Both the position numbers and the translations under genes were made by a program. Below the pieces are notes generated by a model, which made no database searches, was not told the DNA's origin, and worked only from the letters and a program-made list of their open reading frames with translations. DNA of 64,000 nt from an uncultured bacterium (GTDB taxonomy: Bacteria > Patescibacteriota > Minisyncoccia > Phycocordibacterales > UBA2100). Of the stretch, positions 32,434 to 62,494 are shown piece after piece; position 1 is the stretch's first letter; each line of letters opens with the position of its first letter. The stretch lies in the NCBI GenBank assembly GCA_903824595.1, contig CAIJXH010000004.1:40697-104696 (forward strand), in the 5' to 3' direction.

Positions 32434-32451
32434 CCCGGAACTATTTCTAGT

Positions 32452-39080: not shown

Positions 39081-39082
39081 CA

Positions 39083-41841: not shown

Positions 41842-41855
41842 TGACGAAAGGAGTG

Positions 41856-43966: not shown

Positions 43967-44031
43967 CGTATCATCGTACGACACTCGACAAATTTTGCCA
44001 TGCCAATACACCAATGCTACACTCCCCGTAT

Positions 44032-44622
44032 ATGAACACCACAGCACAAATGCTCGTGCCGATGGTCGTCGAGAAGACGTCTATGGGCGAACGGGCGTAC
44101 GATATTTATTCGCGTTTGCTCAAGGAGCGCATTGTCTTTCTCGGCGGCCCCATCGACAGCGACGTCGCCAACCTCGTCGTTGCACAGCTCTTATTCCTCG
44201 CCAGCGAAGACCCTAAGAAAGATATTTCGTTCTACATAAATTCCCCGGGCGGACACGTCTCGGCAGGACTTGCCATTCTCGACACTATGAATCACATCCA
44301 GCCCGCAGTTTCTACGGTATGCGTTGGCATTGCCGCTTCTATGGGTGCCGTGTTGCTTTCTGCGGGCGAAAAAGGTAAGCGATTTGTGTTGCCCAATGCC
44401 GAAGTGATGATCCACCAACCATCGGGCGGCGCGGAAGGACAGGCGACCGATATCGAAATAACCGCCAAGCACATCATCGCCACACGCGCCCGTCTCAACA
44501 AAATCCTTGCAAAAAACACATCCCAGAAACTCGACAAGATAGAACAAGACGTTGATCGCGACTTTTTCATGACTGCCGAAGAGGCAGTTACATACGGCAT
44601 TGTGGATAGCGTGCTCGTATAA
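44032..44622 (+). CDS. clpP: ATP-dependent Clp protease proteolytic subunit.
   Basis: [20 protein letters not shown], catalytic Ser in GIAASMGA, His in MIHQP. Confidence 0.9.
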
Positions 44623-44683
44623 AACCACCCTCAACGTGCTGATGTGATTTTGAAAATAGCTCTACATATGGTACATAGACAGG

Positions 44684-45151
44684 ATGGAATCTAAATCTAT
44701 CCTAAAAGAATTGCTCGAATCTGCCGGATTGCTTCATTCCGACATCCTTATAACAGAGCTCGCGGGACAAACGATACTCACTATCGAGACCGAAGATGCG
44801 CCCGCTATTATCGGCTCACACGGTGACGCGCTGCACGCTCTCGATCATCTCGTGCGCAAGATTGTCGAGAAACGCACCGTTTCTTCCGAACATGCACCTC
44901 ACGACACGCATCATCCACTCGTAGACGTTGACGGGTATCGCACCAAACAAATCAAAGATTTGCAAGCAAAAGCAATCATGATGGCAGAGCGCGCTCGCTC
45001 GTTCCAATACGACGTCGAGCTGACACCCATGAGTTCCTACGAGCGTCTCATCGTGCACACCACACTTGCCGATGCCCCACACGTAAAGACAGAATCCCAA
45101 GGAGAAGGTCGCGACCGACGAGTCGTCATCCGATATCGCGAGCACGCATAA
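44684..45151 (+). CDS. khpB: Jag/KhpB-type RNA-binding protein (KH + R3H domains).
   Basis: IIGSHGDALHALDHLV (KH-like) and C-terminal R3H motif LTPMSSYERLIVHTTL. Confidence 0.65.
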   Translation: MESKSILKELLESAGLLHSDILITELAGQTILTIETEDAPAIIGSHGDALHALDHLVRKIVEKRTVSSEHAPHDTHHPLVDVDGYRTKQIKDLQAKAIMMAERARSFQYDVELTPMSSYERLIVHTTLADAPHVKTESQGEGRDRRVVIRYREHA

Positions 45152-45169
45152 CCAAAACCGTTACGGCAT

Positions 45170-45604
45170 TCACGTGCGCGCAGGCAAGTACGTCTGCAGA
45201 TCGAGTATGTGCGGATTGATTTGATTGAGAATAATCCATACCGCAATAAGAAGGACGATGCCGAGCATCGTGTCTTTGATTATTTGCTTTGCTTTTTCTT
45301 TGTCTGTCCACAAATCACTTGCCATATATTCATATCCTGCCCACACAAGACGAATGACCGCCAACATGCCACCAATCGAGATCGAGGCGAAGAAGAATCT
45401 GTTTACAAACCCGCTCAAATCGCCCATAGCGCCTTGGTTGTATAGCGCATCAAGCTTGGTTCCTGAATAACATACCAGCGACACAAATCCATCGGTCCTC
45501 TGATTTTCACATGAATCACCGTACACGCCGTATGGTATGCCACACAAGAATGAGGCGACACCTGTCATACAGAAGATCACAAAGTAATTGAGTGTCTTTT
45601 TCAT
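45170..45604 (-). CDS. TrbC/VirB2-like pilin-type membrane protein (putative T4SS pilin). Start assigned to an internal Met.
   Basis: Signal/TM segment, conserved central region, C-terminal TM (MLGIVLLIAVWIILNQI). First gene of a minus-strand T4SS-like cluster. Assignment by architecture and context. Confidence 0.4.
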   Translation of the reverse strand: MKKTLNYFVIFCMTGVASFLCGIPYGVYGDSCENQRTDGFVSLVCYSGTKLDALYNQGAMGDLSGFVNRFFFASISIGGMLAVIRLVWAGYEYMASDLWTDKEKAKQIIKDTMLGIVLLIAVWIILNQINPHILDLQTYLPART

Positions 45605-45608
45605 TGTG

Positions 45609-46814
45609 TTATGCGTCAATGCGCAGCGACCACAGAGATTGATCGATTGCATTCTTGAAGATAAGATACTTTCCGCGCACGTCAATAGAAGGGTCTTGCA
45701 CATCCACGGGCGTATCGGGCACAAACAAAGTTTCCACGACTCCCGTACGAACGTCAATCTTCCACCACTGATCAGCAAGATGCACCTCACCACGATACCA
45801 CATATCGAGAAAACCATGATTCATAATAGGTGGTGCTGCACAAAATACGACAAATTGATCCGTCGGCGACCATACACATTTATCAGCTATTGTCTTGAGC
45901 GAGACGGGTGTCGTCGTACCATTCACGCGAACAAACAGGGTTGGCTGCTCATCAAAGGTGCTGTACACCATTGACGTGGAAGAGGCGCGCGGCAATACCG
46001 CAAGACCATTACCTCGCGCAAGCGGAACAAGAACATTGTTTTTTTGTACCTCATACGCGTATCCCGCAACACCATCAGCAGGATTTTGTGCGACGATGAT
46101 ACGCCCGTCGGCAAGCCACCGTACGTTCCACCCTACAATATTTGATGAAAATATCTGCATAGGCTTCGATCCGTCGACCCCAGAACGCACGCCCACTAGT
46201 TTGCCTTGTGACGGCAAGAGCGCGACAATTTCTTTTCCAGAAGCACTAAACGCGACAGACTGTACAGTTTTGGCAAGCGGTTTGACGATGAGGGGAGCTA
46301 TTTCAGCGCTCGTGATCTGAACCGTGCCCATACTCGCGCCATCAGCGTTGCGTTCAATTACTCGTCCATCAGAGCTGATAATCGCATCGTATACCGATGG
46401 GACGAGGGTGTTGGTAACACGGACGACCGTGTTCGTATCTAAAAACGCATCAAACACGTTGCCCGTTGCCCGTTCCACAAATCTCACCCGTGTTGAAGAT
46501 GTACCCATGGCGACAAAACCATCCCCTGCGACTGGCTCCGCCGCAATATGCCACGCGCGCGGGAGCGTCGAAGACGCAACAACGTGCGGCGACACATCGC
46601 GCACAGACTGGGCACCACTCGACGATGAGACGAGTTCTTTCGTTCTTTGAGTAGGTCCAAATGACACATCGCCGCCAAGCGCACTCCCCGTGTGGTCATT
46701 CTGAATCCCACGAATTTTTGATTGCAAGAATATATACCACCCGGCAAGCGCCACCACACTCAACACCGTCATGCTGATGAGAAATATTTTTGAGTATTTG
46801 ATGAGAGATTCCAT
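45609..46814 (-). CDS. Membrane-anchored hypothetical protein (N-terminal TM), T4SS-cluster member.
   Basis: 401-aa ORF, single N-terminal TM, beta-rich repeat-like body. Confidence 0.4.
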   Translation of the reverse strand: MESLIKYSKIFLISMTVLSVVALAGWYIFLQSKIRGIQNDHTGSALGGDVSFGPTQRTKELVSSSSGAQSVRDVSPHVVASSTLPRAWHIAAEPVAGDGFVAMGTSSTRVRFVERATGNVFDAFLDTNTVVRVTNTLVPSVYDAIISSDGRVIERNADGASMGTVQITSAEIAPLIVKPLAKTVQSVAFSASGKEIVALLPSQGKLVGVRSGVDGSKPMQIFSSNIVGWNVRWLADGRIIVAQNPADGVAGYAYEVQKNNVLVPLARGNGLAVLPRASSTSMVYSTFDEQPTLFVRVNGTTTPVSLKTIADKCVWSPTDQFVVFCAAPPIMNHGFLDMWYRGEVHLADQWWKIDVRTGVVETLFVPDTPVDVQDPSIDVRGKYLIFKNAIDQSLWSLRIDA

Positions 46815-46824
46815 ACGCTGAGTA

Positions 46825-47877
46825 TTATCGTGCTACGTTCGAAAATAAAATAGTTCCCGCGCCCGATGAATTGAGAAACATGTTGGCGGAAGACGTGAGA
46901 GATACACGCACTTGAGCTTCGTGAGTCTTTGCTCCCTCCGCGCCAATAGTCAGACGATTTGGCTGTGAGCGATTGAAAGGCACCTGCGCACCATTGAGCG
47001 TCCAATCGTACTGAAGCGATGCGTCTCTGGGATCAGATGCAAGATAATACGGGACCGCCACAAGCGACATTTCCACATCATGTGCATCTTCTTGCGCGCC
47101 AATGGCACGATAATAGGTAACGCCGAGCAACGGATCGTCCTGATATAAAACAATATATGGCTCTTTCGATGCAATACGCACCGATGATTCTGTGGCAAGC
47201 GTCCCATCTGTCGTGTGCGCCTCCACCGAAATAGTGTCCGATCCAAACAACACGGGACTTGGAATAATCGCTGATGATTTTCCCACACCAGATACCGACT
47301 GAAGCACCGACACCCCTTTGCGCCACGTAAATATAATGTCTTGTAGCGGCACGAGATGACCATCAGGACGCTTGAAACGCGGGATTGCTTCGAGATGAAG
47401 CATTGAACCAGCAGAAGGAAGCGCACGGCCGCGGAAAGCTTGCGGTACGTACGAGTCTGATTCCCACAATAAATCGAGTTCGGTGGGGCGAATCACCGTG
47501 CTCGCTCGCCCCACTCCATCGACTACTGCATCGACTGCTGTCTCCGATCCAAGGGGACCTGCGGTTACGTCGATTGCGCGCGAGGTGTTTGCGCTTTTTT
47601 TTCCATTGACAACCCATGTCACCGTTCCACTTCCAGCGCCATCAGTAACACTATCAACCGTGATATGAACACTATCACCGGGCCGCGGATATTTCGGCGA
47701 TACTGTCAAAGACACGTCGCCCCCGTCAATCGCTTGCGCATGTGCCAATACAGTCAACATCGCCCACATAAACACACCGTACATCATCATCTGTCGTCTT
47801 CGTGCCATGCGTCTAGTATATCGCGCCGCCAGCAATACCGAGTGATAGGTAAAGTCAAATAGGGTAACTGTGCCCAT
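46825..47877 (-). CDS. Secreted hypothetical protein, T4SS-cluster member.
   Basis: 350-aa ORF with hydrophobic N-terminus MMYGVFMWAMLTVLAHA. Confidence 0.4.
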   Translation of the reverse strand: MGTVTLFDFTYHSVLLAARYTRRMARRRQMMMYGVFMWAMLTVLAHAQAIDGGDVSLTVSPKYPRPGDSVHITVDSVTDGAGSGTVTWVVNGKKSANTSRAIDVTAGPLGSETAVDAVVDGVGRASTVIRPTELDLLWESDSYVPQAFRGRALPSAGSMLHLEAIPRFKRPDGHLVPLQDIIFTWRKGVSVLQSVSGVGKSSAIIPSPVLFGSDTISVEAHTTDGTLATESSVRIASKEPYIVLYQDDPLLGVTYYRAIGAQEDAHDVEMSLVAVPYYLASDPRDASLQYDWTLNGAQVPFNRSQPNRLTIGAEGAKTHEAQVRVSLTSSANMFLNSSGAGTILFSNVAR

Positions 47878-47884
47878 CTACACA

Positions 47885-49111
47885 TTATTGTACTGTGCAA
47901 AGATGGTTTATTCTGCTTACACTGAACCGAAAAGATTGCAAAAATGTACACCTTGGCAATGAAGCAGGGACAGTTCCATCAATATAGGTAAAAGTACCCT
48001 CAGTCAAACTACCTGTTGTTCCTGATAATGGTTTATAAGAATACGTGTTCGGTTGCTGTTTTGGAACACTCACAGAATCGCCAATGTTCACAACATCTCC
48101 AACAAAATATCTTTGTGTTAAATCTCTCAGACCAGATCCGTTTTGCATTGATTGAACTGTTTGCAATCCCACAATCCCATCTACTGTTAAATTATGTGCT
48201 TGTTGATATTGCCTTACCGCTGCTTCAGTTTTTGGACCAAATACACCATCTGATTTGCCGGTATTATATCCATTAGCTGTCAGAAAATCTTGCAAATTAG
48301 ATACATTTTTACCACGATCCCCAACACTCAACACATCCCCGTTGTTCTGGATATCGTTTAGAGTTTGCCCTATGGCACTTGGAGAAACTGGCTTCGCTGT
48401 TCTGGCAGCTTGTGGTATCGGGGCGAATCCCGCCTTCTTGCACTGCGCATCCACCAAAGCCTGGACTTGTTTGATACACGTCGCACACACAGTATTAATC
48501 TCCCTGAATTCTTCTTTAAAACCATTGCCTTTGTACACACCATTCTCCGATCCATCGGTACACCTACACTCCTCGGCGGTTGAATCTGATAACACGGCGA
48601 CATTTGGCTTGAGCCACAAAAACCACACCGCTCCATATCCTTGTTGCGCTTGCTCTTCGGAAAGGTGGTACTGGGTGCCACATAGATCCATGCTCTCTTT
48701 GCTTATCATGGCCCCTGCTTCATTATTCGACAATGTCAGACGACTTTTTATATTTGTATTCTTGTCAGCCCGATACGCACCTTTCGCATCACGAGATGAG
48801 ACACGAAAACACTCAAGATTCTTTGCTAAGCTAGCTGGCCTATCCTGAAAATCCCTTGAAACAGCAACTACTCTCCCCACCTTGATTCCGACAGACTTTC
48901 CCTCAAAATTCTCCGCAATATGTTCGTGACACCTGAACAAGCTCTGGAGCAGATTCGCATCAACACCCGATGTACTCGCCCCCCCCGCCACCTGACCCGC
49001 ACTCGGCACCGACTGCGAAGAAACGGCGATGGTGAAGAAAAGCGCGGCGGCAATGATACCAGCGGGGAGCGTGGGAAGGATGGTGGTTTTATATCGCACG
49101 GTGTTACTCAT
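47885..49111 (-). CDS. Secreted protein with C-terminal peptidoglycan-binding (PG_binding_1-like) domain.
   Basis: LQDFLTANGYNTGKSDGVFGPKTEAAVRQYQQAHNLTVDGIVGLQT matches the PGRP/PG-binding_1 repeat consensus. Confidence 0.5.
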   Translation of the reverse strand: MSNTVRYKTTILPTLPAGIIAAALFFTIAVSSQSVPSAGQVAGGASTSGVDANLLQSLFRCHEHIAENFEGKSVGIKVGRVVAVSRDFQDRPASLAKNLECFRVSSRDAKGAYRADKNTNIKSRLTLSNNEAGAMISKESMDLCGTQYHLSEEQAQQGYGAVWFLWLKPNVAVLSDSTAEECRCTDGSENGVYKGNGFKEEFREINTVCATCIKQVQALVDAQCKKAGFAPIPQAARTAKPVSPSAIGQTLNDIQNNGDVLSVGDRGKNVSNLQDFLTANGYNTGKSDGVFGPKTEAAVRQYQQAHNLTVDGIVGLQTVQSMQNGSGLRDLTQRYFVGDVVNIGDSVSVPKQQPNTYSYKPLSGTTGSLTEGTFTYIDGTVPASLPRCTFLQSFRFSVSRINHLCTVQ

Positions 49112-49166
49112 GCCGTATATACTATCATTGTTGCGCTCGCGCTACCACCCCCATGTGTATTACGAA

Positions 49167-49286
49167 GTGCCTATCCCCTCACGACATGTTCGACGAGGTC
49201 TTTGCAGCGCGACGGCGCGAAACAGAGGGATTTTTCAGCAGAAAAATCCCGACCTCGGAGAATCGTGTCGTGAGGGGATAGGCACC
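49167..49286. mobile_element. MITE-like palindromic element copy 1 (120 bp; 21-bp terminal inverted repeats GTGCCTATCCCCTCACGACA; flanked by TATTACGAa / TATTACGAc).
   Basis: Near-perfect long hairpin with nested stems. A second near-identical copy at 52489..52608 has a different flanking duplication. Confidence 0.7.
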
Positions 49287-49307
49287 TATTACGACACGCG
49301 TATCCCA

Positions 49308-51272
49308 TTACGACGTGGGAGCAGTATCAGCGCGCGCCACTTTTGCCGCTGACGCAATGTTCCCACTGTCGGGAACAGCAGAAAGACGTGAGTGTGGAGG
49401 TTGTATGCGCGAAGAAGAAATCGGAGCGGAAGAGGTCTCTACAGCTGCTGCGTTCGTTTCTTGCGTCGCTTCCATTTCTTGTTTTGCTTTTTTGATTGCG
49501 AGAATCTGCGACGGATCGGAGGTTATGATCTGATCTTCGGTGTACGATGCGACCACCTTGATCGCGACATGCTTCAATCCCGCAAAGAAAATCCCCTCTC
49601 CCACATCACTTTCGAGCAGAAGGTACTTCTCTTCATCGGAAAGCTTGAAGGTGCTCTGTACAAGATCCACCGAAGTCGGCGACTGACGCAACAGCATCTG
49701 GATTGAGGAGTTGGTAATCATCGGGACGCCGTACGGAGAATTGAGGAAGTCGGAGACGTCTTGCGTGATCGTGGAGACGCCGAGGAAATATTTGCGTCCG
49801 CGCTTGATGATGCCGAAAAGGAATGAGGCGGTATCTTGGCTTCTCATCATCCACCATGCCTCGTCGATGATGAGGAGGCGTTTGCGTAGCTCTTTTCTCA
49901 CCGTGTTCCAAATATGATGCGTGATGATGTACATGGCGACCGGCTTGAGATCGTCTTCCATGTCGCGCACCGAGAAGACGACGAGCTTTTTGTTCATGTC
50001 GACATTGGTCGGACGATTCATAAAGCCAGACCACGTGCCTTTTGTATATTTCGAGAGGCGCGCAACGAGCGAGTCACTCCCCTCCATACCCGACAGCACG
50101 AGTTCGAAATCGGAGAGAAGAGGCGGTTCGACTGCGGCAAAATTAGAATCCGGGGTTATGTCTTTGAGCGCGTAGGTCTCGGTGATGGCTTTATCGATCA
50201 CGGCATCTTCTTCTGGAGTGAGTCCGCCGAGCATGATGCGGAAAAGTCCCACAAGCGTGATAATGTTGTTGCGCAACACATCGGACGGAGCTTCGTCTTC
50301 GCGCGGGATCGGAAGATCGAAAGGATTGATATGGTGTTCGGACGAAAGCGAAATATTGAAGTAACGTCCGCCCACCGTCTCGGCGAGATACTCATACTCA
50401 CGCTCTGGGTCGATGACGATCACCTCCACGTCAAACATGAGCGAGCGCAAAATCTCGAGCTTGGTCATGTATGACTTCCCTGCGCCCGATTTCGCAAAGG
50501 TGACGGAGTTGTAGTTTTCGAGCGAGAAACGATCGAACAGGATGAGTGAAGAATTGTGACGATTGATGCCGTAGAGAATGCCGCGATCCGAGGTGAGGTC
50601 AAAAGATATGAAAGGAAAGATCGACGACAATGGCGCTGAATTTAGTTTTGTATGCACGTCAAGCTCATCAGTACCAAGCGGCAACGTGGAACGAAATCCC
50701 TGCTCCTGCTGAAACAGCGCCGGACGTATATACACAAGCCGCGACTCCAAAACCGATCGCACATCACTTTCTATTTTGTCGAGCTCGTCTCGCGTTGCCG
50801 CGTAAATCGTGATGTACAAACCAACATCAAAGATACGTTCCTGTGCTTGCTGTAAACTATCGCGAAGCTGTTCAATATCCGCATACGCCGTGTCGAGCAT
50901 CGGATCACGCACCATGCCCGATTCTTCACGCGTGGAAATCTGACTTTGCACCTCCGCCACCTTTTTCTGGAATTTGCGCAACATTTCATTGGTATCCATG
51001 GGGTGAATGAACACTGAAATATCTATCACCTTGTCCATGTTGATGATCGGCGCAAACCATCCTGTCGTGAGAAAACGCGGATACGAGATGACAAAAAATG
51101 TACGAGCTATTTTTTCGCCAAGATCAAGCTCGCGCGAATGTATCTTGAGCGCATGCGGCGCAATAACATCTTGTAAATCCAAAATACCCGTGCGATAAAT
51201 CTCCTCGGGCAATATAGGCAATATCTTCGCCGTATCCTGCTTCTTTGTGACAAATAAATCAAGAAATGACAT
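49308..51272 (-). CDS. VirB4/TrbE/CagE-like type IV secretion ATPase (ATPase domain; N-terminal domain encoded by the separate upstream ORF).
   Basis: Walker A FAKSGAGKSYMTK, Walker B VIVIDPEREYEY..., C-terminal motifs of the VirB4 family. Confidence 0.7.
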   Translation of the reverse strand: MSFLDLFVTKKQDTAKILPILPEEIYRTGILDLQDVIAPHALKIHSRELDLGEKIARTFFVISYPRFLTTGWFAPIINMDKVIDISVFIHPMDTNEMLRKFQKKVAEVQSQISTREESGMVRDPMLDTAYADIEQLRDSLQQAQERIFDVGLYITIYAATRDELDKIESDVRSVLESRLVYIRPALFQQEQGFRSTLPLGTDELDVHTKLNSAPLSSIFPFISFDLTSDRGILYGINRHNSSLILFDRFSLENYNSVTFAKSGAGKSYMTKLEILRSLMFDVEVIVIDPEREYEYLAETVGGRYFNISLSSEHHINPFDLPIPREDEAPSDVLRNNIITLVGLFRIMLGGLTPEEDAVIDKAITETYALKDITPDSNFAAVEPPLLSDFELVLSGMEGSDSLVARLSKYTKGTWSGFMNRPTNVDMNKKLVVFSVRDMEDDLKPVAMYIITHHIWNTVRKELRKRLLIIDEAWWMMRSQDTASFLFGIIKRGRKYFLGVSTITQDVSDFLNSPYGVPMITNSSIQMLLRQSPTSVDLVQSTFKLSDEEKYLLLESDVGEGIFFAGLKHVAIKVVASYTEDQIITSDPSQILAIKKAKQEMEATQETNAAAVETSSAPISSSRIQPPHSRLSAVPDSGNIASAAKVARADTAPTS

Positions 51273-51289
51273 ACGGTAATGATAACGTA

Positions 51290-51934
51290 TTACGCTTCAA
51301 GCGGCATCGGTTTTCCTTCTTCTCCAGGATTGAACATTTTGTAGAGGAGCTCGATCGTCTCTTCAGTCCCCAAACGCACCGTGCGCACTCCCGTGCGTAT
51401 CAGCCCCTGTTGCACAACACTGATTCGCTGCTCAAGCTGAGAAAGCTGTTCTTCGAACGATCGATTTGCAGCCTCTGTGCTGCTTTCTTTTTTGAACGAG
51501 AAAAACGACGCCGCTTCCGCGACAGTCGTCGCGCCGCCCGCATAAGGAATGACGACAAAGAAATTCTTGGTCATGATACTTGCTGCTTCAGTGAAGTTTT
51601 TTATGAACTCGATGTATTCGCGGATTTGAATGCGCATGAGGTCGTTGAGCTGTGCTTTGTATGCTTCCTCCAGCGTGGCAACATACGGACGGATGTCGAG
51701 CATGCGCGATTGCACAAAAATTTGTATGGTGAAATCGAGCGCATTGAGACAATTTTGAAACTGCACGATGAACGCCGTCTGCTCGTCTTCAGACTTGAGT
51801 GCGAAGTTGATCGACGACGCAAGAAGAATGGCGCGGAGACTCCCGTCTTTCAAAACGATGATCCCATCACGGACTTCACGCACAGGGACGAAATCTTGAG
51901 TCGATTTGCTTGCGTTTGTGGTGGAATGCGGCAT
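51290..51934 (-). CDS. VirB4 N-terminal-domain-like protein (split from the ATPase domain by a 17-nt gap and a frame change).
   Basis: DFVPVREVRDGIIVLKDGSLRAILLASSINFALKSEDE matches the conserved N-terminal CagE/TrbE/VirB4 segment. Confidence 0.5.
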   Translation of the reverse strand: MPHSTTNASKSTQDFVPVREVRDGIIVLKDGSLRAILLASSINFALKSEDEQTAFIVQFQNCLNALDFTIQIFVQSRMLDIRPYVATLEEAYKAQLNDLMRIQIREYIEFIKNFTEAASIMTKNFFVVIPYAGGATTVAEAASFFSFKKESSTEAANRSFEEQLSQLEQRISVVQQGLIRTGVRTVRLGTEETIELLYKMFNPGEEGKPMPLEA

Positions 51935-51946
51935 AGGTATATACGA

Positions 51947-52435
51947 TTATACACGCATCGTCCGCGATGCTGGCAATGGCACGCCATCCATGCCGCGCTC
52001 CTCGTCTCGCGCAATACCCCCCGCGACTCGCTCCTTGATATCGAGTGACCACGCCAAATCACGAAGCTTGCTTTCAGACAGTTTGGGCACATACGTTTCC
52101 GTCGTAACGATCCCCGCTTTTTTCTGCTCCCCCACGCCATCTTTCCACTTCATGCGACGCTGATTGCTCCAGAGGTAGAATTTTGTTCGCATAAGGTACC
52201 GCAAACCATTTTCGAGCGCGTCGATAAACGGGCGATCGTTGTATGTGATAAACGCAAGCGCAAGCGCGAAAGCTGCGAGTATAATCATGCACGGGATCGC
52301 GATCAAAGACGGGAGCAACCTCCACACCAGGTACGACGCCCCCGCCCCTCCCACCACAAACACAAACTGCTTGAACGTAAGAGGACCAAAAATCTTGTCC
52401 TCGACTTCAATAAACTGCGGAACCTGAAACTGCAT
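51947..52435 (-). CDS. VirB3/PrgI-like small membrane protein (putative).
   Basis: MQFQVPQFIEVEDKIFGPLTFKQFVFVVGGAGASYLVW: N-terminal motif plus two TM helices, as in VirB3-like proteins preceding VirB4. Confidence 0.4.
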   Translation of the reverse strand: MQFQVPQFIEVEDKIFGPLTFKQFVFVVGGAGASYLVWRLLPSLIAIPCMIILAAFALALAFITYNDRPFIDALENGLRYLMRTKFYLWSNQRRMKWKDGVGEQKKAGIVTTETYVPKLSESKLRDLAWSLDIKERVAGGIARDEERGMDGVPLPASRTMRV

Positions 52436-52488
52436 ATTGCCAGTATACCAAGCGTATCGACGTGCTCATGACCTGTTTGTGCGTATCA

Positions 52489-52608
52489 GTGCCTATACCC
52501 TCACGACATGTTCGACGAGGTCTTTGCAGCGCGACGGCGCGAAACAGAGGGATTTTTCAGCAGAAAAATCCCGACCTCGGAGAATCGTGTCGTGAGGGTA
52601 TAGGCACC
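52489..52608. mobile_element. MITE-like palindromic element copy 2 (flanked by a perfect 9-bp duplication TGCGTATCA). An adjacent partial third copy lies at ~52623..52666.
   Basis: Identical to copy 1 except one compensatory pair of substitutions in the terminal stem (C->A on the left arm, G->T on the right arm). Confidence 0.7.
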
Positions 52609-52671
52609 TGCGTATCACCATCACACGACGCGTTCGACGAGGTCTTTGCAGTGCGACGACGCACAGGTTAT

Positions 52672-53202
52672 TCACGCCGCTTCTCGATACGGGTCGTCGG
52701 CGACCGAGGCACGCGACACACTCGTCTCTCCCGGTCGATACCCATCGTTGACTATCGGCACACGCATGACACGCATGGCGTGAGGCGCGGGAGGGGGTGT
52801 CGCGGGCACAGGAGGAGCTGGCGCGACCACCGACTCACGCGACGAAACGGGCGCGCTCGGCAATGGTGCCGCCTCTTTCTTTTCAAGCTCATGTTCAAGC
52901 GCTACGCGAATCGGCTCGAACACAACGCGTGAAATATCTCGCACAAGCGCGGTTGCCACATCGGCAGGAACGCCCACTTCCTTTTCCACGTTTGCCGCGA
53001 GAGCATCTACCGACTGAATGCCCAGCATCGCGAGCATCACCTCGTTCTCGAGTTGCTCCCATTGATCAATATGAAGTTTGTATAGAGTGGAAAGCTCGCG
53101 CAAATGATGCTCGACATCGGCAGACACAATCGCCTCTTGCACAATGCGTGGCAACGTGGAGAAACGCTCTTGCAATTGTTGTTGAATATCCGACGTGGTC
53201 AT
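52672..53202 (-). CDS. Hypothetical helical protein with Pro/Ala-rich tail (T4SS cluster).
   Basis: 176-aa ORF. Confidence 0.35.
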   Translation of the reverse strand: MTTSDIQQQLQERFSTLPRIVQEAIVSADVEHHLRELSTLYKLHIDQWEQLENEVMLAMLGIQSVDALAANVEKEVGVPADVATALVRDISRVVFEPIRVALEHELEKKEAAPLPSAPVSSRESVVAPAPPVPATPPPAPHAMRVMRVPIVNDGYRPGETSVSRASVADDPYREAA

Positions 53203-53225
53203 AGAAGATGAATATGGTAAGTATA

Positions 53226-55514
53226 TTATTTTTTAGCGGACGTTGGGTCTTTGGTCTCTTTCAGTTTCTCTCTCAATCCTTCGAGAAGTCTGTCCGCCTC
53301 TTTCTTCTCCTTACCCTTTTTTACCTGATCGCGTGCAAGCTGCGCCAGAGAATCATCAGACTCGTTGCCGAGAAGCCCAAATAATCTCGCGGCGCGCCCA
53401 TGCGCCAGTGTAGCAGCGTTGTCTGCAACGGAGTACTCCAGATTACCTCCTTCGGTGACCCGTAGCGCACGATACTTGTCTGCAACCGCATTTTTGAGTA
53501 CGTCTGTTTCAACACGCGTCTTGTCGCGTTGCGCATTCTCGTATATTTTCTGCGCATTCTCGAGTACCTGCTTCGTTGCCGCAGACGCGTCTTCAATATT
53601 TTTTGCTGCGGCTTTTATCCTGCTATCAACTGCGTCAATTTCGCCTTGCTTTTTGCTTATTGTTTTTTTATCCGCACCATTACGCTTGAGCTTGAGGTCG
53701 TTGAGCTCCGCTTCTTTTTTATTTTTCTCCAATTCGGCAGCCGCCTTTTCTGATTTATGTTGCCGAACTTCACGACTAGATTCGACATCATCGTGAGCCG
53801 CTCTTACGGTCACCAGATTTTTCGCGGCTTGTTCGAGGTGTGTACTTGCAACGCCAAGTCTCTCGTCATGTGATTGTTTGATAATTTTATCCCGAATCAC
53901 CTGTGTATTTGGCTTGAGACGTTCCGCTTGAGCGGCATATCCCTTCGCCTTCTCCGTGCGTACACCCTTGAACCCTCCATACGTGGTGATACCCGCGCCA
54001 TCCAAGCCCGAGAGTTTGGCAAGCTGTTTGCCCGCGGCGGTGTTCATGAAATTGAAATCGCTTTTGGCAACCGCACTGGTCGGTTTATGAAACAATTCAT
54101 CGACCATGCGTGCGCGCACGTTTTTCCCTTGTCCTGCAAGGTTACCTCTCCACCTCTCCGTTCTATTTGCTAAGCTCGAGCTCATCCCCCCCAGTACCGT
54201 ACGACCCGCAAACCCGCCAAACTTTGCCGCACCAAGCACGGGCACCATCAGCGACGCGGCACTCAGTACGCGCGAAAGCCCCCCGCCCGCCACACTGCCC
54301 GACACCATACTGGCGACGCGAAGCGAGACGAACAAGAGTGCAATAATAATCGTTGCGTTGACCAGCGCAGGGACCGATTGTTCCGCTTGCCCCGACGCCA
54401 GCAACTGACCAAGCGTCGACACGTTCCACGTACTATGCGCGTAATCTGAAAAAGCGTGCGCGATCATCAAGTTTGCCCACAAAAGCATCATGAGCAGCGG
54501 GGCGAGTACGGCGTTGTGAATAAGCGATCTCCACCATCGTTCCCACCCAAGCTCGATAAAGTCACCGGGAATAAGCCAGCTTGCAAACGCGATCGCCGAT
54601 ACCAACATGAGAAAAATAAGTGACACCGCTCGATACACGAGAAGAAATGATCCAAACACAAACACACACGCAATTGCCGCGAGAATGACGAACGATACAA
54701 GACCATACAGCAGACCGACCCACGCGTTTTGCGCCGAATATCCTACGCTAATCGCACTGCTATCGAATATGCCATTCACTCCTATGTATTGCATGAATTT
54801 CGCCGCAATGCCGCCCGTACCGGGAGACACAACGGTATTGGACGACGTGCGAGTGACGGGAGTGGCGATGTCATCACTTTTCAACATGCTCGTGTAAAAT
54901 TGCGCCGCGGTGAAATTGGAAACATCGACAATCATCTTGGTAAACAAAAGACTGAAATTGAGCAAGATTGCGATAATGAGCACGCGCGCGATGCGACGCT
55001 TGTCACCAAACTGAGTTATACCGAGAATGAGACACACGGCGGTAAATACGAACATACCAATGATGATAATGTCGGCAATATCGCGGAAAAATGTCCACCC
55101 CACGTCGATTCCGTTGGTAATAGCGCTGAACAACGAACCGAATCCGACCACCACGTGTCCCAGTAAAAACTCAAACATTCTTCCCGAAAATTCCGCAAAA
55201 AATACACCGACGGCGACAAGAATATTCCCGATCCCTCCTGTGATCCATCGCAGCCAACACCCCCCATCTACCCAACTCTTTGCACCAGTACACGCGCTCG
55301 ACGAAAGCACAGACGACGCATCGGCAGTATTGTAGTTAGCCGATCCTGTGCCGTTTGGGTCGAATGGTGTTTCCTGGGCTTGAGATTGCGTCTGTGCATA
55401 TGCAACGCGTGCGGGCACGAGTACCACGCTTGCAAACAAGAACGCAAGTATCACAAGCACAAAACCAGCTCGTATTCGCACTGCTCTCGTCGCGTGTGTC
55501 GTCATAATTTCCAT
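53226..55514 (-). CDS. Large polytopic membrane protein, VirB6/TrbL-like (putative T4SS inner-membrane channel component) with C-terminal coiled-coil.
   Basis: >=8 TM helices over ~450 aa followed by a Lys/Glu/Ala-rich coiled-coil tail. The topology and position next to VirB4 fit VirB6-like proteins. Confidence 0.45.
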   Translation of the reverse strand: MEIMTTHATRAVRIRAGFVLVILAFLFASVVLVPARVAYAQTQSQAQETPFDPNGTGSANYNTADASSVLSSSACTGAKSWVDGGCWLRWITGGIGNILVAVGVFFAEFSGRMFEFLLGHVVVGFGSLFSAITNGIDVGWTFFRDIADIIIIGMFVFTAVCLILGITQFGDKRRIARVLIIAILLNFSLLFTKMIVDVSNFTAAQFYTSMLKSDDIATPVTRTSSNTVVSPGTGGIAAKFMQYIGVNGIFDSSAISVGYSAQNAWVGLLYGLVSFVILAAIACVFVFGSFLLVYRAVSLIFLMLVSAIAFASWLIPGDFIELGWERWWRSLIHNAVLAPLLMMLLWANLMIAHAFSDYAHSTWNVSTLGQLLASGQAEQSVPALVNATIIIALLFVSLRVASMVSGSVAGGGLSRVLSAASLMVPVLGAAKFGGFAGRTVLGGMSSSLANRTERWRGNLAGQGKNVRARMVDELFHKPTSAVAKSDFNFMNTAAGKQLAKLSGLDGAGITTYGGFKGVRTEKAKGYAAQAERLKPNTQVIRDKIIKQSHDERLGVASTHLEQAAKNLVTVRAAHDDVESSREVRQHKSEKAAAELEKNKKEAELNDLKLKRNGADKKTISKKQGEIDAVDSRIKAAAKNIEDASAATKQVLENAQKIYENAQRDKTRVETDVLKNAVADKYRALRVTEGGNLEYSVADNAATLAHGRAARLFGLLGNESDDSLAQLARDQVKKGKEKKEADRLLEGLREKLKETKDPTSAKK

Positions 55515-57130
55515 GCCGCCGACCATCGGTTTATCACCGCAGGATTTTTGATGTTGCACCAGCCAACCGTCGCGTCGGTGTTGTCTCCCCATGCCGTGAC
55601 CGTATCTTTGAGGAGCGTGTTCATGGCATTTTGCGTATCGCTTTGTTTTTGTGCAGCGTTCTGTGCATCATACTGCGTATGCAGAGCCCCTTGCGCGACA
55701 AGCTGATCGAGCATCTGCAGCGATGCCTGCTGTTCGGCAACCGTCTTTGCATTGGCTATACCCGAGATCATCGTGTTGATTCTTGCGAGTGCCGTTTGTG
55801 ATGTGTGAATGTTGTCGATCGTTGTCGAAGCAAGAGGAGCAATTTGCGCGTCGATGACGCCTTGCGACGCGAGTGTCGACGTTGCGATCTTTTCTTTCGG
55901 AGCTTCTTGCGAAACACTTCCATCGGAAGCAGGTGTTGTCGAACCCATACACACGCTGTCTACAGGAGGCGCAACACACACATGCCTTTCTGGATGATCA
56001 TCTTTCTGATACGTGATCAAATCCCAGCATTTCGTTTCTGCAGCTCGTAACTGCCCGATTGTTTGCGTAAGATTTTGTGCGGTTGCATTCATTGCCGACA
56101 AATACTTGAGTTCATTCTGACGCGCCGCTGTCAGAATGCCAAGCGCCGCGTTGCCTGTGGCACCCACGACACCATTGCTCGATGCGGTGGTCATAGCATC
56201 CAGGAACGATGGTCCGCCGTTGTTTTGTGCAAGTCCTTTTAGTCCTTGCGCACTTGTCATCACTTGCGTCGAAACACCTGCGTACAGCGAACTAATCATC
56301 TGTCCGATATCGGTAGCATTTTCGAGTTGAGAAAACCCTGACTGTACGAGCTGATTTGCATTGCTCGCAACCATCGCACCAGGCGTAACCGTGATGGTAT
56401 TTCCATTATCGTCAAGCTGTTCGACTCCATAAATGCCATTGCCCGTTTGGAGTTTGAACAGCATCTGACCAACCGAGGTGTCTACTTGACGGTCGACCGC
56501 ATTTCGCACCAGCGATGCCGCACCCAATGGATTACATGCGGGATTCATGAAATTGTGAAAATCGTCAAACGAGAACGGGCGCGACGTGGGGTTGGTAATG
56601 TCTGCTTTGAGATCACCGCCGTAATTGCATACCAGCTGGTTGTTGGTGCGTGTTTCTGCCATGTATTGACGCGCGACAGTTGAGCGCACTTGATTGCGGA
56701 ACGCTGGATTGACTTCGTTGATGTTCATAAGCTGTGAAAGCGCCGCCTTATCCCCTGCTGCCACAATATCGGCATTTAGATCGACAGGCCACATAGGATT
56801 GCCGTTACGACCCGTGAGGAATCCTGAAAGACCTTTTTTCGTGAACGAAGCGGTCGCGCTTTCACGCAGACGACTCACCAGCGGGCGCAAGACGCACTGG
56901 AGATAATCCATAATTCCAGAATTGAGCGTCACCGCCGCGTCGTTGACAGGGACGAACGTGCCGCCCATCGCTGCAAACGTTCCAGAGCTTATACTCGCAC
57001 CACCAATGTTGCTGCACCCAAATATTCCATTACTTTGATACTGATACCCAGCGGTTTGCGCCGACACAGACGACGTCGTCAGCATCAAGCCGACCATTAT
57101 GATTCCCACGGTGCGAATGATCTGGCTCAT
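55502..57130 (-). CDS. Secreted hypothetical protein (signal peptide), T4SS-cluster member.
   Basis: MSQIIRTVGIIMVGLMLTTSSVSAQT signal. 542 aa, Asn/Gln/Ala-rich. Confidence 0.45.
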   Translation of the reverse strand: MSQIIRTVGIIMVGLMLTTSSVSAQTAGYQYQSNGIFGCSNIGGASISSGTFAAMGGTFVPVNDAAVTLNSGIMDYLQCVLRPLVSRLRESATASFTKKGLSGFLTGRNGNPMWPVDLNADIVAAGDKAALSQLMNINEVNPAFRNQVRSTVARQYMAETRTNNQLVCNYGGDLKADITNPTSRPFSFDDFHNFMNPACNPLGAASLVRNAVDRQVDTSVGQMLFKLQTGNGIYGVEQLDDNGNTITVTPGAMVASNANQLVQSGFSQLENATDIGQMISSLYAGVSTQVMTSAQGLKGLAQNNGGPSFLDAMTTASSNGVVGATGNAALGILTAARQNELKYLSAMNATAQNLTQTIGQLRAAETKCWDLITYQKDDHPERHVCVAPPVDSVCMGSTTPASDGSVSQEAPKEKIATSTLASQGVIDAQIAPLASTTIDNIHTSQTALARINTMISGIANAKTVAEQQASLQMLDQLVAQGALHTQYDAQNAAQKQSDTQNAMNTLLKDTVTAWGDNTDATVGWCNIKNPAVINRWSAAWKL

Positions 57131-58014
57131 GGTGTTCGTGAGCGCTCGTATTGCGCGAGGTCGTTGAACGCATTGAGCATCACTTGTTCCTTGTCCTGGT
57201 AGGTGCGCAAAAGCGCCGCGCTCGCAAACGGATCATCAACATGCGCGATCATCGCATCGAGTGTTGCCGAAAACGCCGCAAGCGCATTGATAATTGCAAC
57301 ATGGAACGAGAGAAGGTTTGCAGGGACGACAACAGCGCTCACGCCTCGAACAGCGAGCTGATAATTCGCAACCTCTTCCTTGAGCTGATCGAGATACGAA
57401 ACATCGTGTGACGCAATGTAATTGGCATAAAGCTTCAATTCGTAGTCGGGATTTTTGAGGAGTGGTGCGAGTGCCTCCCGCATATCACTCCGATACGTAA
57501 GCATGCGCTGATATGACGTATCGGGACTTGAAGAGAAGTCTGAAGCGGTATAAGTAGGATGCGAGACGTTTGCCTGAAGCGTCTGTGCAATATTTTGTGC
57601 AATAAGCGCTCCTTTTTCTGGAGTGAAACTGCCGCTTTTTTGCAGCACCGCATACGTTTCTGCGAACGTGCCCACCACATTGCCCGCAATGTTCGCAATG
57701 CCGTCAGGATCGTGAGTGTCGTGCAGCACAACAGGCGACGAACTTGAAATATCGAGCAGATCTCTCTGCCATGGCTCATCGTTTGATGGCGATGCTTCTT
57801 CAGACGTCACGCTTGATGTTGCCGCGAACACATTAGTGGCGACTACCATAGAACGTGCCGAAACAATGCGTCCCACAGCCACAATCAAAAGCGTGCAAAA
57901 AGAAATCGCGGCGAGAATTGCCATTGGAGAAAGCGCCTCGGTATGCGAGCGTTCGTCATTCATCTCCTGATTATACCAGTACAAGCACTGCAGTGCGTCT
58001 TCGCCCCAGAACAA
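57127..58014 (-). CDS. Membrane-anchored hypothetical protein, T4SS-cluster member.
   Basis: One TM (AILAAISFCTLLIVAV), 295 aa. Confidence 0.4.
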   Translation of the reverse strand: MFWGEDALQCLYWYNQEMNDERSHTEALSPMAILAAISFCTLLIVAVGRIVSARSMVVATNVFAATSSVTSEEASPSNDEPWQRDLLDISSSSPVVLHDTHDPDGIANIAGNVVGTFAETYAVLQKSGSFTPEKGALIAQNIAQTLQANVSHPTYTASDFSSSPDTSYQRMLTYRSDMREALAPLLKNPDYELKLYANYIASHDVSYLDQLKEEVANYQLAVRGVSAVVVPANLLSFHVAIINALAAFSATLDAMIAHVDDPFASAALLRTYQDKEQVMLNAFNDLAQYERSRTP

Positions 58015-58020
58015 GAACGC

Positions 58021-58869
58021 CTAAAATTGCGACGCGGAAAAAGAGAAAACCTTGCCGGGATCAGTGTCCCCGAACGACACGTCGTACGCCGAAAACATAT
58101 TCGCAAGCCCCACAACGGCACGTATATAATCATCCGCCGCTGTATCATAGGCGAGCATGGCATGTACGCGTTCGGTATCGGTCGTTGCGCGTGGAACCGA
58201 TGTGAGCTTTTCTGCCATGTGAACATATCCGACTGAAAGCTGCGTTGCAATCGACGTAATCTCGGGAGGCGCATCATACAGTGCAAGCGCGTGACCAAGA
58301 GACGCGTATTCGTCTGCGAGAGACTCCACCGCATGGCGAGCCGCACTATCGGCAGGGTGATCAATTTGATCTTTGATCGTCGAGAGAATGGCAGGGTGTG
58401 ACACCTCAAATTCATGAAGCTTCGCGCCTATCGCATTACCATACTCATAGAGTTTCTGTTGTTGCGGTGTACGCACTTTCTCAACAGGTATGGTCGCAAG
58501 CCCTCCAGGGATGAGCGCGTATTCTGGCATATCAAGACCAAAAGCAGCAGAACTCGATGCATGTTCAGAGGTGGAATCGTGCGTATGCACCATATCAGTG
58601 AGAGTTTCAGTATCGCCAGATACGATCGACACATGATCTGAATTGGTGGTGACAATTCCTACCGTGCGCACGTCTCCTACAACAGGAAGAGAAGGAGTGT
58701 GGTAGGTCTCTGATATCGTATGAGCAAATATCGCGTCGCTATGTTCCCATGACTGCACTGACGCAATCGGCACGGGAATTGTTTTCACAACAAAGATACA
58801 CAGAAACACCCCAAGTATTCCACCTATACCTACGCCATAGGGTCGCATGTATTTCCACGACATACACAC
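58021..58869 (-). CDS. Membrane-anchored hypothetical protein, first gene (5'-most) of the minus-strand T4SS-like cluster.
   Basis: N-terminal TM GVGIGGILGVFLCIFVV, 282 aa. Confidence 0.4.
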   Translation of the reverse strand: MCMSWKYMRPYGVGIGGILGVFLCIFVVKTIPVPIASVQSWEHSDAIFAHTISETYHTPSLPVVGDVRTVGIVTTNSDHVSIVSGDTETLTDMVHTHDSTSEHASSSAAFGLDMPEYALIPGGLATIPVEKVRTPQQQKLYEYGNAIGAKLHEFEVSHPAILSTIKDQIDHPADSAARHAVESLADEYASLGHALALYDAPPEITSIATQLSVGYVHMAEKLTSVPRATTDTERVHAMLAYDTAADDYIRAVVGLANMFSAYDVSFGDTDPGKVFSFSASQF

Positions 58870-58895
58870 AGTATATAGGAATTACAAATCAAGAC

Positions 58896-59243
58896 ATGGC
58901 GCGATGGTACAATGCACTCATGCAATGGATGCGCACAATGGGAATCACGCTACTTATGATCTTGTGTATAACCCCCTCAACGGCACGGGCTTTCCCCTTT
59001 GGCGGTACAGCAGGCGTTGTGCTCCCCTGCTTCAACGCGACCATCTACGTAGCCGTGGGACCTCCGCTTGGAGGCAGCTTCATCTGGACTACTGCAACAA
59101 AGACGTTCCCCAATGGCCCTCCCACACACAGCGGGCAAAAACTTCTCGGGCTTGCGGGACCTCCGTACTACTGCATTTTTTCTATCGCACCTGTTATTAC
59201 GTGGGCTGGCATTGCGATGACGATGGTCGGCACAAGCAAGTAA
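58896..59243 (+). CDS. Small secreted/membrane protein (possible pilin-like). Plus-strand ORF between the T4SS-like cluster and ksgA.
   Basis: N-terminal hydrophobic signal MGITLLMILCITPSTARA and a C-terminal hydrophobic segment. Overlaps the ksgA 3' end on the opposite strand. Confidence 0.3.
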   Translation: MARWYNALMQWMRTMGITLLMILCITPSTARAFPFGGTAGVVLPCFNATIYVAVGPPLGGSFIWTTATKTFPNGPPTHSGQKLLGLAGPPYYCIFSIAPVITWAGIAMTMVGTSK

Positions 59244-60039
59244 TAGAGGTGGTGAATCGTTTCCAATCAAGAATGGTGAGACGTTCAGCGCGTATGCACG
59301 GATCTATATTTACGCTACCACACGCGCGATGCACAATCTCCTTATCATAGAGGTGCGTCATATTACTTCCAAACATCTTCCGTTTTGCCGCAAATCCCGC
59401 GTGCACGATTTTGAAAAAATCACGCTCGGTGATGTCTGAAAAGAAATCGCGTGTAATGTCTTCGATGAGCAAAATCGCGGAATCCACCGATGGCGGTGGG
59501 GAGAAATTGCCGCGCCCGACTTTTGCGACAATCTTCGGCACACCATACACCTTTACCGAAAGTGACAGCATGCTTTCTTTCTTATCGCGCGCAATAATGC
59601 GTTCCGCGACTTCTTTCTGAACAAGCAGCGCCATCGCACGTGGCTGCATTTCCGCGGTGAGAAATTGTTTGATGATTTCGCCGGTAATGTAGTACGGAAT
59701 ATTCGCCGCAACAACATATGCTCCCGACGGCGTGAAATCGCGCACGTCACCTATCACAATAGTGAGCTTCCCCGCCACAACGTCTGACGCAAACGTTGTA
59801 TGTAGTTCTTCCGCAAGCGCCTCGTCTTTTTCTATCGCGATGACGCGCGCGCCCGTCGCGAGCAGTTTTTGTGTGAGAGCGCCCTTGCCAGGACCGATCT
59901 CGACGATCGTCTCCCCCTCGCGTACCGCCACCGACTTCGCAAGCACGTCCGCATAGTGCGTGTTCGTCAAAAAATGCTGCCCCAGCCGCGCACCCCGCTT
60001 TTTCACGGTTGCTTTATGACTTTGGTAAAGTCTGACCAT
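59197..60039 (-). CDS. rsmA: 16S rRNA (adenine1518/1519-N6)-dimethyltransferase.
   Basis: LGQHFL, IVEIGPGKGALT, AANIPYYIT motifs of KsgA/RsmA. Confidence 0.85.
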   Translation of the reverse strand: MVRLYQSHKATVKKRGARLGQHFLTNTHYADVLAKSVAVREGETIVEIGPGKGALTQKLLATGARVIAIEKDEALAEELHTTFASDVVAGKLTIVIGDVRDFTPSGAYVVAANIPYYITGEIIKQFLTAEMQPRAMALLVQKEVAERIIARDKKESMLSLSVKVYGVPKIVAKVGRGNFSPPPSVDSAILLIEDITRDFFSDITERDFFKIVHAGFAAKRKMFGSNMTHLYDKEIVHRACGSVNIDPCIRAERLTILDWKRFTTSITCLCRPSSSQCQPT

Positions 60040-60284: not shown

Positions 60285-60286
60285 AC

Positions 60287-60466: not shown

Positions 60467-60517
60467 ACGGTGAGTGTAGCATTGTCTTTGGTGGATGCAA
60501 TCTAATCGCCCAAAATT

Positions 60518-62419: not shown

Positions 62420-62494
62420 GGGCGTACTATACCAAACAAACCTATCTTGTGATTCACGATCTTCGTCGCATAACAAAAATGCTATCATGATTCT

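Follow-up and report, generated by a model that had tools for sequence, protein, structure and literature searches.

The type IV secretion systems (T4SSs) of Patescibacteria form a monophyletic VirB4 group nested within the monoderm MPF_FATA class, and are found in ~80% of 3,035 genomes (PMC12102498). TrsD is their most frequently detected component; PrgI-type VirB3, VirB6 and PF18895/VirB2-like pilins are encoded near virB4, ksgA and replication genes are common neighbours, relaxases are almost always missing and homologues of the type IV coupling protein (T4CP) are encoded elsewhere (PMC12102498). In the saccharibacterium Southlakia epibionticum, the corresponding locus (SEML1_0006-0019, with TrsD, PrgI, VirB6 and pilins among its products) was found by transposon sequencing (Tn-seq) to be essential for epibiotic growth (PMC10633639), and a 2025 review counts the Patescibacteria T4SSs as the newest members of the superfamily (PMC12857230). 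Here we describe a cluster of twelve genes at positions 45170-58869 of a 64,000-nucleotide stretch of DNA (hereafter, the window) from an uncultured member of the Patescibacteriota (contig CAIJXH010000004.1 of assembly GCA_903824595.1), which a first-pass annotation, made from the letters alone, had described as a minimal, non-canonical T4SS. Our comparisons make it highly probable that this cluster is a chromosomal, vertically inherited Patescibacteria T4SS with the gene order of the Paceibacteria (to our knowledge, a class without a cultivated representative), and that it derives from monoderm MPF_FATA conjugation machinery of the PrgJ/CD1110 type, with the DNA-processing parts lost.

The ORF (open reading frame) list and its translations confirmed that the twelve ORFs are consecutive and lie on the minus strand; start codons were chosen to agree with the gene calls of an identical public contig. 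The ATPase gene, virB4 (49308-51272), encodes the C-terminal two thirds of VirB4 with the P-loop domain, and its product matched NF045971, the VirB4-like conjugal transfer ATPase model of the CD1110 family, over profile positions 185-733 with 366.2 bits against a cut-off of 325. CD1110 is the best NCBIfam model for this protein, which further matched PF19044 (82.9 bits) and TIGR00929 (E 4.5e-33), with lesser matches to TraC, VirB4_CagE and the VirB4 of the Mycoplasma integrative and conjugative element (ICE). Its nucleotide-binding motifs are intact (P-loop AKSGAGKS, Walker B LLIIDE), and when a profile of its family was aligned with PrgJ of pCF10 using hhalign, the two matched at 99.6% probability (residues 31-566 vs 222-773). 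The ATPase also has Pfam matches to DUF87/HerA (27.7 bits) and AAA_10, as might be cited in favour of a non-T4SS membrane ATPase system of the HerA/FtsK type that sits among secreted proteins by chance. However, these matches cover the shared P-loop only, so the protein does not group with the HerA/FtsK ATPases, and against them stand the 366 bits of the CD1110 VirB4 model, the matches to TraC and VirB4_CagE, and the adjoining genes for PrgI and a T4SS pilin. We give a HerA/FtsK-type system practically no credence.

The ORF that precedes virB4 by 17 nt (51290-51934; 214 aa) is TrsD-like. It corresponds to positions 2-164 of the CD1110 profile and 6-180 of TIGR00929, and matched the TrsD/TraD model NF041427 with an E-value of 4.4e-6 (26.7 bits against a curated cut-off of 200) over positions 9-198 of 201; the TraC-like family PF26593 is precomputed on a database protein identical to it. 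Since the N-part and the C-part match successive stretches of the CD1110 profile, the TrsD-like and VirB4 ORFs jointly represent one VirB4, as the first-pass annotation had proposed. Its VirB3-like and TrbC/VirB2-like assignments held as well, both with scores above the family cut-offs. The PrgI protein, a VirB3-like membrane protein encoded 12 nt before the TrsD-like gene (51947-52435), matched PF12666 with 48.9 bits (cut-off 27), and the pilin matched PF18895 (T4SS_pilin) with 36.2 bits (cut-off 26.6). The pilin gene belongs to the operon of virB4, 3.7 kb further downstream (45170-45604, 4 nt from its upstream neighbour); its start, previously placed at 45817, was corrected to 45604, so that the protein has 144 aa from an internal Met. 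A transmembrane (TM) scan gave it a signal peptide and two hydrophobic helices, and it weakly resembles the pilin-like family of the Mycoplasma ICE, NF045849 (E 0.0024).

The C-part of VirB4 has thousands of close relatives, of which the best 120 are 84-100% identical, 632-732 aa long and devoid of the N-domain; where a source name is given, the nearest ones are labelled as candidate phyla radiation (CPR) groups, namely Candidatus Kaiserbacteria, Paceibacterota, Pacebacteria or Parcubacteria. When one genome was scanned per species, 80 related loci emerged, against which the proteins of the window were compared by tblastn. By their record labels, these loci belong to Kaiser-, Nomura-, Taylor-, Campbell-, Wolfe-, Adler- and Zambryskiibacteria; roughly one in three bears the label 'uncultured Candidatus Saccharibacteria'. 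Because VirB4 is 72-91% identical across these 80 Paceibacteria genomes, and the named close relatives are all Patescibacteria, it very likely belongs to the monophyletic Patescibacteria clade. The source organism is a Kaiserbacteria-like representative of the Paceibacteria. The gene order at these loci is fixed, namely uvrD, ksgA, a small divergent gene, G1, G2, G3, G4, G5, prgI, trsD, virB4, G10, G11, pilin and jag (we use G numbers for the cluster genes without established names), with G11 and the pilin gene swapped in more distant genomes. PrgI was found in 79 of 82 loci and the pilin in 63. The comparison of synteny that had been suggested for this cluster thus revealed the same order, between the same housekeeping flanks, in 80 genomes.

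These comparisons bear on whether the cluster might be a decayed conjugative element, i.e., the remnant of an ICE or plasmid with a frameshifted VirB4, bereft of its relaxase and coupling protein. Its VirB4 is indeed of the family found in the ICEs and plasmids of Firmicutes (CD1110/PrgJ) and is encoded in two ORFs, and the window contains repeats as well as an IS200-like gene. However, in each of the 76 loci with a readable trsD, this gene forms a complete ORF of its own, and the split of VirB4 is therefore the ancestral state and not a frameshift. The two ORFs noted by the first-pass annotation are thus real, but they represent an ancestral TrsD plus VirB4 layout and are not peculiar to this locus; the TrsD plus TrsE pair of the pGO1 class is, moreover, functional (PMC12102498). 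Both parts are also well conserved: across the same loci (L003-L082 of our set, compared with window positions 43699-62686), median identities were 77% for VirB4, 61% for TrsD and 48% for PrgI, and 47%, 52% and 42% for the flanking housekeeping proteins KsgA, UvrD and Jag, respectively. VirB4 is far better conserved than these three, which argues for strong purifying selection. We found no integrase and no att-like boundaries at the cluster, and composition is unbroken there (the G+C content is ~52% in the window). As the housekeeping flanks occur in the same order in 80 genomes of several lineages, synteny effectively refutes decay, which we hold to be very improbable; the cluster is neither a plasmid remnant nor a pseudogene.

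The search for further T4SS components was largely negative, in agreement with the absences listed by the first-pass annotation. Pfam scans of the cluster and of each large ORF in the window detected neither a relaxase nor VirD4, VirB8-11 or VirB1, and neither the cluster genes nor the 38 other large ORFs scanned contain a Pfam or NCBIfam domain of a relaxase or coupling protein (VirD4/TcpA). A VirB1-like hydrolase (PrgK/TrsG) is absent from the cluster, where the protein G9 carries a PG_binding_1 domain alone; the one hydrolase that the window was seen to encode, a LysM-Peptidase_M23 protein, lies 35 kb away (8765-9850). No VirB8-like bitopic protein with an NTF2 fold (PrgL/TraM) was found in the cluster. 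When single proteins of pCF10 were used as hhalign templates, only the VirB4-PrgJ pair was detected; the negatives for PrgH, PrgL, PrgK, PrgC and PrgF are uninformative, since even PrgI failed to match PrgI, i.e., single-sequence templates are too insensitive.

A T4SS without relaxase and T4CP in its cluster or window is reminiscent of the Helicobacter ComB system, and the window was previously thought to have a DNA-uptake theme. On such a reading, a competence T4SS like ComB or the archaeal Ced system would hand imported host or environmental DNA to ComEC, with ComM acting downstream. Both proteins invoked are real: the window encodes a metallo-beta-lactamase (MBL) domain protein matching the C-terminal part of ComEC (TIGR00361 positions 419-663, E 4.7e-31) and a ComM/YifB protein (478 bits). 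In addition, the ATPase weakly matches CedB at the P-loop, and in the class ABY1, T4SS loci co-localise with comF, recG and radA (PMC12102498). However, 21-33 kb separate the ComEC-like and ComM genes from the cluster, and neither gene belongs to the conserved order, so that the DNA-uptake theme has no specific support; the cluster lacks ComB-type VirB7-10 homologues, and the CedB match scores 33.5 bits against a cut-off of 700 and is confined to the P-loop. Furthermore, by the account of PMC12857230 (citing Wang 2023), in S. epibionticum, the sole relative studied genetically, loss of comEC ends transformation and not viability, competence runs via type IV pili, and the T4SS is essential. As deletion of comEC abolishes competence and leaves the cells viable, the requirement for the T4SS does, on that account, not operate through ComEC. 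We therefore regard a competence T4SS as improbable. Regarding the MBL protein itself (24087-24947, minus strand), we observed that it is a stand-alone version of the C-terminal nuclease part of ComEC, with no ComEC channel domain in the adjoining ORFs.

Returning to the Patescibacteria T4SS, its candidate membrane platform is G4 (53226-55514), which overlaps G3 by 13 nt and lies directly upstream of prgI, like prgH in pCF10. The TM scan gave G4 at least 8 hydrophobic segments (a signal/TM segment and at least 7 TM helices), followed by a Lys/Glu-rich helical tail of ~280 aa, an architecture termed 'extended VirB6'. G4 of the window itself had no Pfam or NCBIfam match, nothing was found for it among PDB sequences, and a PDB profile search gave coiled-coil noise alone. 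At the family level, 5 of 30 G4 members matched PF04610 (TrbL/VirB6; best E 1.6e-4), and the G4 family aligned with R388 TrwI/VirB6 in its central TM region with an hhalign E-value of 1.3e-3, yet a probability of 18%. The earlier VirB6-like label thus fits the polytopic topology, the charged helical tail and the weak PF04610 signal of the family, but not the window protein taken by itself, and a VirB6-like platform is a plausible, not proven, identity for G4.

The remaining cluster genes encode accessory and envelope proteins. G1 (58021-58848) and G2 (57127-57963), separated by a spacer of 57 nt, encode bitopic membrane proteins that are paralogous over ~127 C-terminal residues (family-versus-family hhalign, 96.3% probability). 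The TM scan placed an N-terminal TM helix at residues 13-31 of the long ORF of G1, which had no Pfam or NCBIfam match and was present at the same position in 19 related loci by tblastn; in G2, a disordered linker connects the TM helix to a four-helix bundle outside the cytoplasm. G3 (55502-57130), overlapping G2 by 4 nt, encodes a Sec-exported protein of 542 aa with very long helices, conserved Cys and a C-terminal GWCN motif, for which a PDB profile search yielded coiled-coil noise only and no structural match. Neither the G2 nor the G3 profile showed similarity to VirB5 (R388 TrwJ). G5 (52672-53202), which begins 23 nt after G4, was found in 56 of the 82 loci searched; its 26 aligned orthologues share a conserved N-terminal domain of 110 aa, a variable Pro-rich linker and a near-invariant C-terminal DPYRE motif. 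G5 belongs to no Pfam family and, as the TM scan detected neither a signal peptide nor a TM segment, is probably cytoplasmic; it is thus an exception to the description of six secreted or single-TM partners without recognisable motifs.

Downstream of virB4, G9 (47885-49111) encodes a membrane-anchored protein with one PG_binding_1 domain (PF01471, residues 266-322, 73.2 bits, E 2e-20), in accordance with its earlier designation as a peptidoglycan-binding protein. G9 is absent after virB4 in all 80 related loci, and among 1.84 billion representative proteins its only full-length match was itself, the others covering the peptidoglycan-binding domain alone; by these comparisons, G9 is an orphan insertion private to this organism. 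The position right after virB4 is occupied in all 80 related loci by G10, which in the window lies 76 nt from G9 (46825-47808; 7 nt if the long ORF is taken). G10 is secreted, and its family consensus holds three repeats of a W-x-x-NG motif; a PDB profile search matched it to the Ig-like domain of phage T4 Hoc (E 1.8e-4), and family members matched BiPBP_C (5), Ig_3 (3) and PKD-type domains, pointing to three Ig-like (beta-sandwich) repeats. G11 (45609-46814; 10 nt from G10), present in 71 loci, has an N-terminal TM helix at residues 4-22 (TM scan) and is an anchored TolB-like beta-propeller: TolB was the top match in the PDB profile search (7mx5, E 1.5e-3) and accounted for 12 of the 13 best rows, and PD40 repeats were detected in 2 family members. 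The folds assigned to the partners without annotation are therefore Ig-like, TolB-like, four-helix-bundle and long-helical, with none resembling the VirB5 or VirB8 folds that had been sought among them.

An additional gene, divergent and located between G1 and ksgA (58896-59243, plus strand), is possibly associated with the cluster. It encodes a small secreted protein of 115 aa with two conserved Cys residues and a hydrophobic C-terminus, and occurs at the same position in 21 related loci. It is called as a gene on the identical contig and has no family assignment; three longer orthologues carry a Lamin Tail Domain at their C-terminus (E 3.6e-16).

The comparisons show an intact VirB4 in two pieces, PrgI, a VirB2-like pilin and a constant set of envelope proteins, all of them under purifying selection and at one fixed place in the chromosome. 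How such a machine might work can be outlined from established T4SS knowledge. A VirB4 hexamer would be tethered via TrsD and PrgI to the polytopic, VirB6-like G4, and the ATP-driven VirB4 would pull the Sec-inserted pilin out of the membrane and polymerise a pilus or conduit through the cell wall. More loosely, G10, G11, G1/G2 and G3, together with G9 in this genome only, would constitute a wall-spanning, anchoring and contact module, replacing the VirB8, VirB1 and adhesins of other systems. Because no coupling protein or relaxase was found in the locus or window, and because the homologous system is essential for the epibiotic growth of a saccharibacterium, the system most likely serves, in place of conjugation, contact with a host cell, into or out of which protein or other material would pass.

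Several points weigh against this interpretation. The search for VirD4 and a relaxase spans the 64-kb window, and a distant gene is possible; T4CP homologues are in fact common elsewhere in Patescibacteria genomes (PMC12102498). Essentiality and host dependence were demonstrated in Saccharimonadia only, not in Paceibacteria. The case for G4 as a VirB6 is weak and made at the level of the family (5 of 30 members; hhalign 18%). Components resembling VirB8 or VirB1 were not detected in the cluster, where the fold of G2 is a four-helix bundle and not NTF2, and the roles given to G1-G3, G5, G10 and G11 are deduced solely from topology, fold class and synteny. 

The cluster is delimited upstream by ksgA as the next gene (KsgA/RsmA; PF00398, E 4.9e-46) and a UvrD/PcrA helicase gene, and downstream, on the other strand, by genes for a Jag/KhpB-like KH-R3H protein and ClpP. 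As to its internal spacing, described earlier as tiny or negative, this is true of most spacers (-13 to 76 nt) but not of two, those of 196 nt between virB4 and G9 and of 236 nt between G5 and prgI. We also observed TATAAT/TATACT-like boxes ~5-12 nt before the ATG of G2, prgI, trsD, G9, G10 and G11, with no Shine-Dalgarno sequence evident in the 22 nt inspected upstream of these starts, which hints at internal promoters and leaderless or very-short-leader mRNAs.

Each of the two long spacers houses one copy of a 122-nt palindromic element on the minus strand: copy 1 (49166-49287) between virB4 and G9, with TCGTAATA as its flanking direct repeat, and copy 2 (52488-52609) between G5 and prgI, with TGATACGCA as its own. 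They are 98% identical and differ at two positions only, which compensate each other within the 20-bp terminal stem. Copy 2 folds as RNA with a free energy of -95.4 kcal/mol (z -8.3). A covariance model of the element, R1, scored the two copies at 117.9 and 117.1 bits, respectively, and found just these two in the window; a partial third piece of 39 nt lies at 52624-52662. We also noted a related 20-mer at 8511-8530. The idea that G9 is flanked by two copies was rejected, as a copy is present on its upstream side only.

In the 80 Paceibacteria loci, model R1 detected five further copies, one of them within another T4SS cluster. A first metagenome scan with a 26-nt arm-plus-core pattern gave no match; a scan for the central hairpin, followed by blastn, later found the family, with ~35 related copies on contigs without T4SS genes (related copies were recorded at L084-L157, L005:16791-16909, L018:2336-2496, L039, L016 and L075). 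The element is thus dispersed in Paceibacteria-like genomes and not tied to T4SS genes. All copies share a near-invariant three-way-junction core of ~56 nt, in which two small hairpins have the loops UGCU and CGUC, enclosed by a closing stem of 20-30 bp whose sequence varies from copy to copy, even on one contig, with complementarity kept. In 24 copies, 90.5% of the cells were paired, as opposed to 74% after shuffling and ~50% with slid partners, and double-sided changes numbered 129 against 37 expected, a value reached in 0 of 500 shuffles. The inner hairpins covary too in more distant copies, G-U pairs are rare, many stems are perfect, and several copies have target duplications of 8-11 nt. 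Rfam gave no match to the element, permissive thresholds included. Miniature inverted-repeat transposable elements (MITEs), REPINs and attC sites have conserved ends and a variable centre; this element has a conserved centre and variable arms, and we rejected all three as a simple fit. We regard it as an element of Paceibacteria genomes that is probably mobile and dependent on structure, and that may also punctuate the operon transcript here. As an undescribed element of CPR genomes, be it mobile or a structured RNA or single-stranded DNA, it may merit independent interest.

A more specific proposal is that Paceibacteria possess a distinct architectural subtype of the T4SS, in which G1/G2, G3, G5, G10 and G11 supply the VirB8/VirB1, wall-spanning and host-contact functions, and whose operon is here cut in three by the two mobile structured elements. 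Within this subtype, G3 would conceivably be a tip or translocator-like protein, and the palindromic copies could be points of RNA processing or termination. We offer it tentatively, judging it on balance unlikely.

Elsewhere in the window, other repeats and genes were observed. The tsaE-like ORF at 38509-39357 (minus strand) contains a palindrome of ~100 nt with a perfect 26-bp stem (38718-38817; DNA fold z -9.6), in frame within the TsaE domain, where ~28 additional residues thereby separate two conserved segments. This palindrome recalls the Rickettsia palindromic elements, which are in-frame gene insertions; the sequence of its loop has no relation to the T4SS-spacer element. A 37-nt direct repeat, 97% identical (11499-11535 and 12769-12805), brackets a gene for an AAA_14/DUF4143 ATPase (11556-12686); one of its copies is the 3' end of comM/yifB, and the arrangement looks like an insertion footprint beside comM. 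A 122-nt direct repeat, 80% identical (41726-41847 and 43301-43422) and unrelated in sequence to the T4SS-spacer element, flanks an unannotated polytopic ORF of 446 aa (41856-43196). The genome, in which several palindromic repeats occur, may encode an enzyme of the RAYT/TnpA type: an IS200-like Y1 transposase domain (PF01797, E 5.2e-5) lies at 40290-40985 (plus strand). Large ORFs of 1157, 103, 312 and 484 aa at 28351-34841 and a separate ORF of 657 aa at 6504-8477 (all minus strand) had no Pfam or NCBIfam match; several are Cys-rich with signal peptides, and may form another surface-protein block. Between uvrD and ksgA (60003-60466, minus strand) are two small ORFs, with DUF5397 and a weak Cas2-like fold on the identical contig, a possible toxin-antitoxin pair, and at 3206-3976 (plus strand) is an AbiEii toxin-family gene.

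Taken together, the identification of a T4SS at this locus is correct but largely already explained, and the locus adds no new kind of system. Few machines are known to be indispensable to these ultra-small bacteria as epibionts, and the T4SS of Patescibacteria is one of them; the comparison defines a conserved Paceibacteria gene set of twelve genes, six of them without sequence annotation and four of these six with a fold-level description, a parts list usable for structural work on Paceibacteria.

Among known systems, the Helicobacter ComB and Sulfolobales Ced systems resemble the cluster in being T4SS-derived machines that work without a relaxase; unlike them, the cluster has no ComB7-10 (VirB7-10) or CedA-type components, and its similarity to CedB is at the level of the P-loop only. 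The Mycoplasma ICE, which encodes a pilin-like protein (Mbov_0395) and a VirB4 (Mbov_0397), shares with it the pairing of a pilin-like protein with a FATA-type VirB4 in a wall-less or monoderm lineage, with matches (VirB4_plasma 247 bits; pilin-like E 0.0024) that are both below the curated cut-offs (590 and 40); in contrast to the cluster, the Mycoplasma systems sit on ICEs and are conjugative. The MPF_FATA plasmids (pCF10 Prg/Pcf; pGO1/pSK41 Trs) share a PrgJ/CD1110-type VirB4, PrgI, the order VirB6-like, VirB3, VirB4 and cell-wall protein (with G4 as the candidate VirB6-like protein of the cluster), the split into TrsD and TrsE (pGO1) and, as expected of monoderms, the absence of an outer-membrane core. 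The cluster differs from these plasmids in having no PcfC/VirD4, relaxase, PrgK-type hydrolase, PrgL/TraM VirB8-like protein or LPXTG adhesins; unlike Gram-positive systems, which are without a VirB2-like pilin, it encodes one, and it is not on a mobile element.

The closest likeness is to the Patescibacteria-clade T4SSs (Quinonero-Coronel et al. 2025, PMC12102498; Wang et al. 2023, PMC10633639), with which the cluster shares a TrsD-like gene distinct from that of VirB4, a VirB3 of the PrgI family, a PF18895 pilin and, with G4 as a plausible candidate, an extended VirB6-like protein, as well as the phylum, a chromosomal position near ksgA and the lack of a relaxase or T4CP nearby. It has one pilin gene, compared with an array of six in Southlakia, and no NTF2/VirB8-like protein was found in it, whereas SEML1_0012 is one (PMC10633639). 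The accessory set of G1-G3, G5, G10 and G11 is not characterised in the papers on Patescibacteria T4SSs (PMC12102498, PMC10633639), and the orphan peptidoglycan-binding gene and the two palindromic insertions are private to this genome. The system is thus reduced and non-conjugative, as the first-pass annotation held of a minimal T4SS in a small-genome bacterium; it is, however, not an unrecognised one, but the already described T4SS of the Patescibacteria clade.

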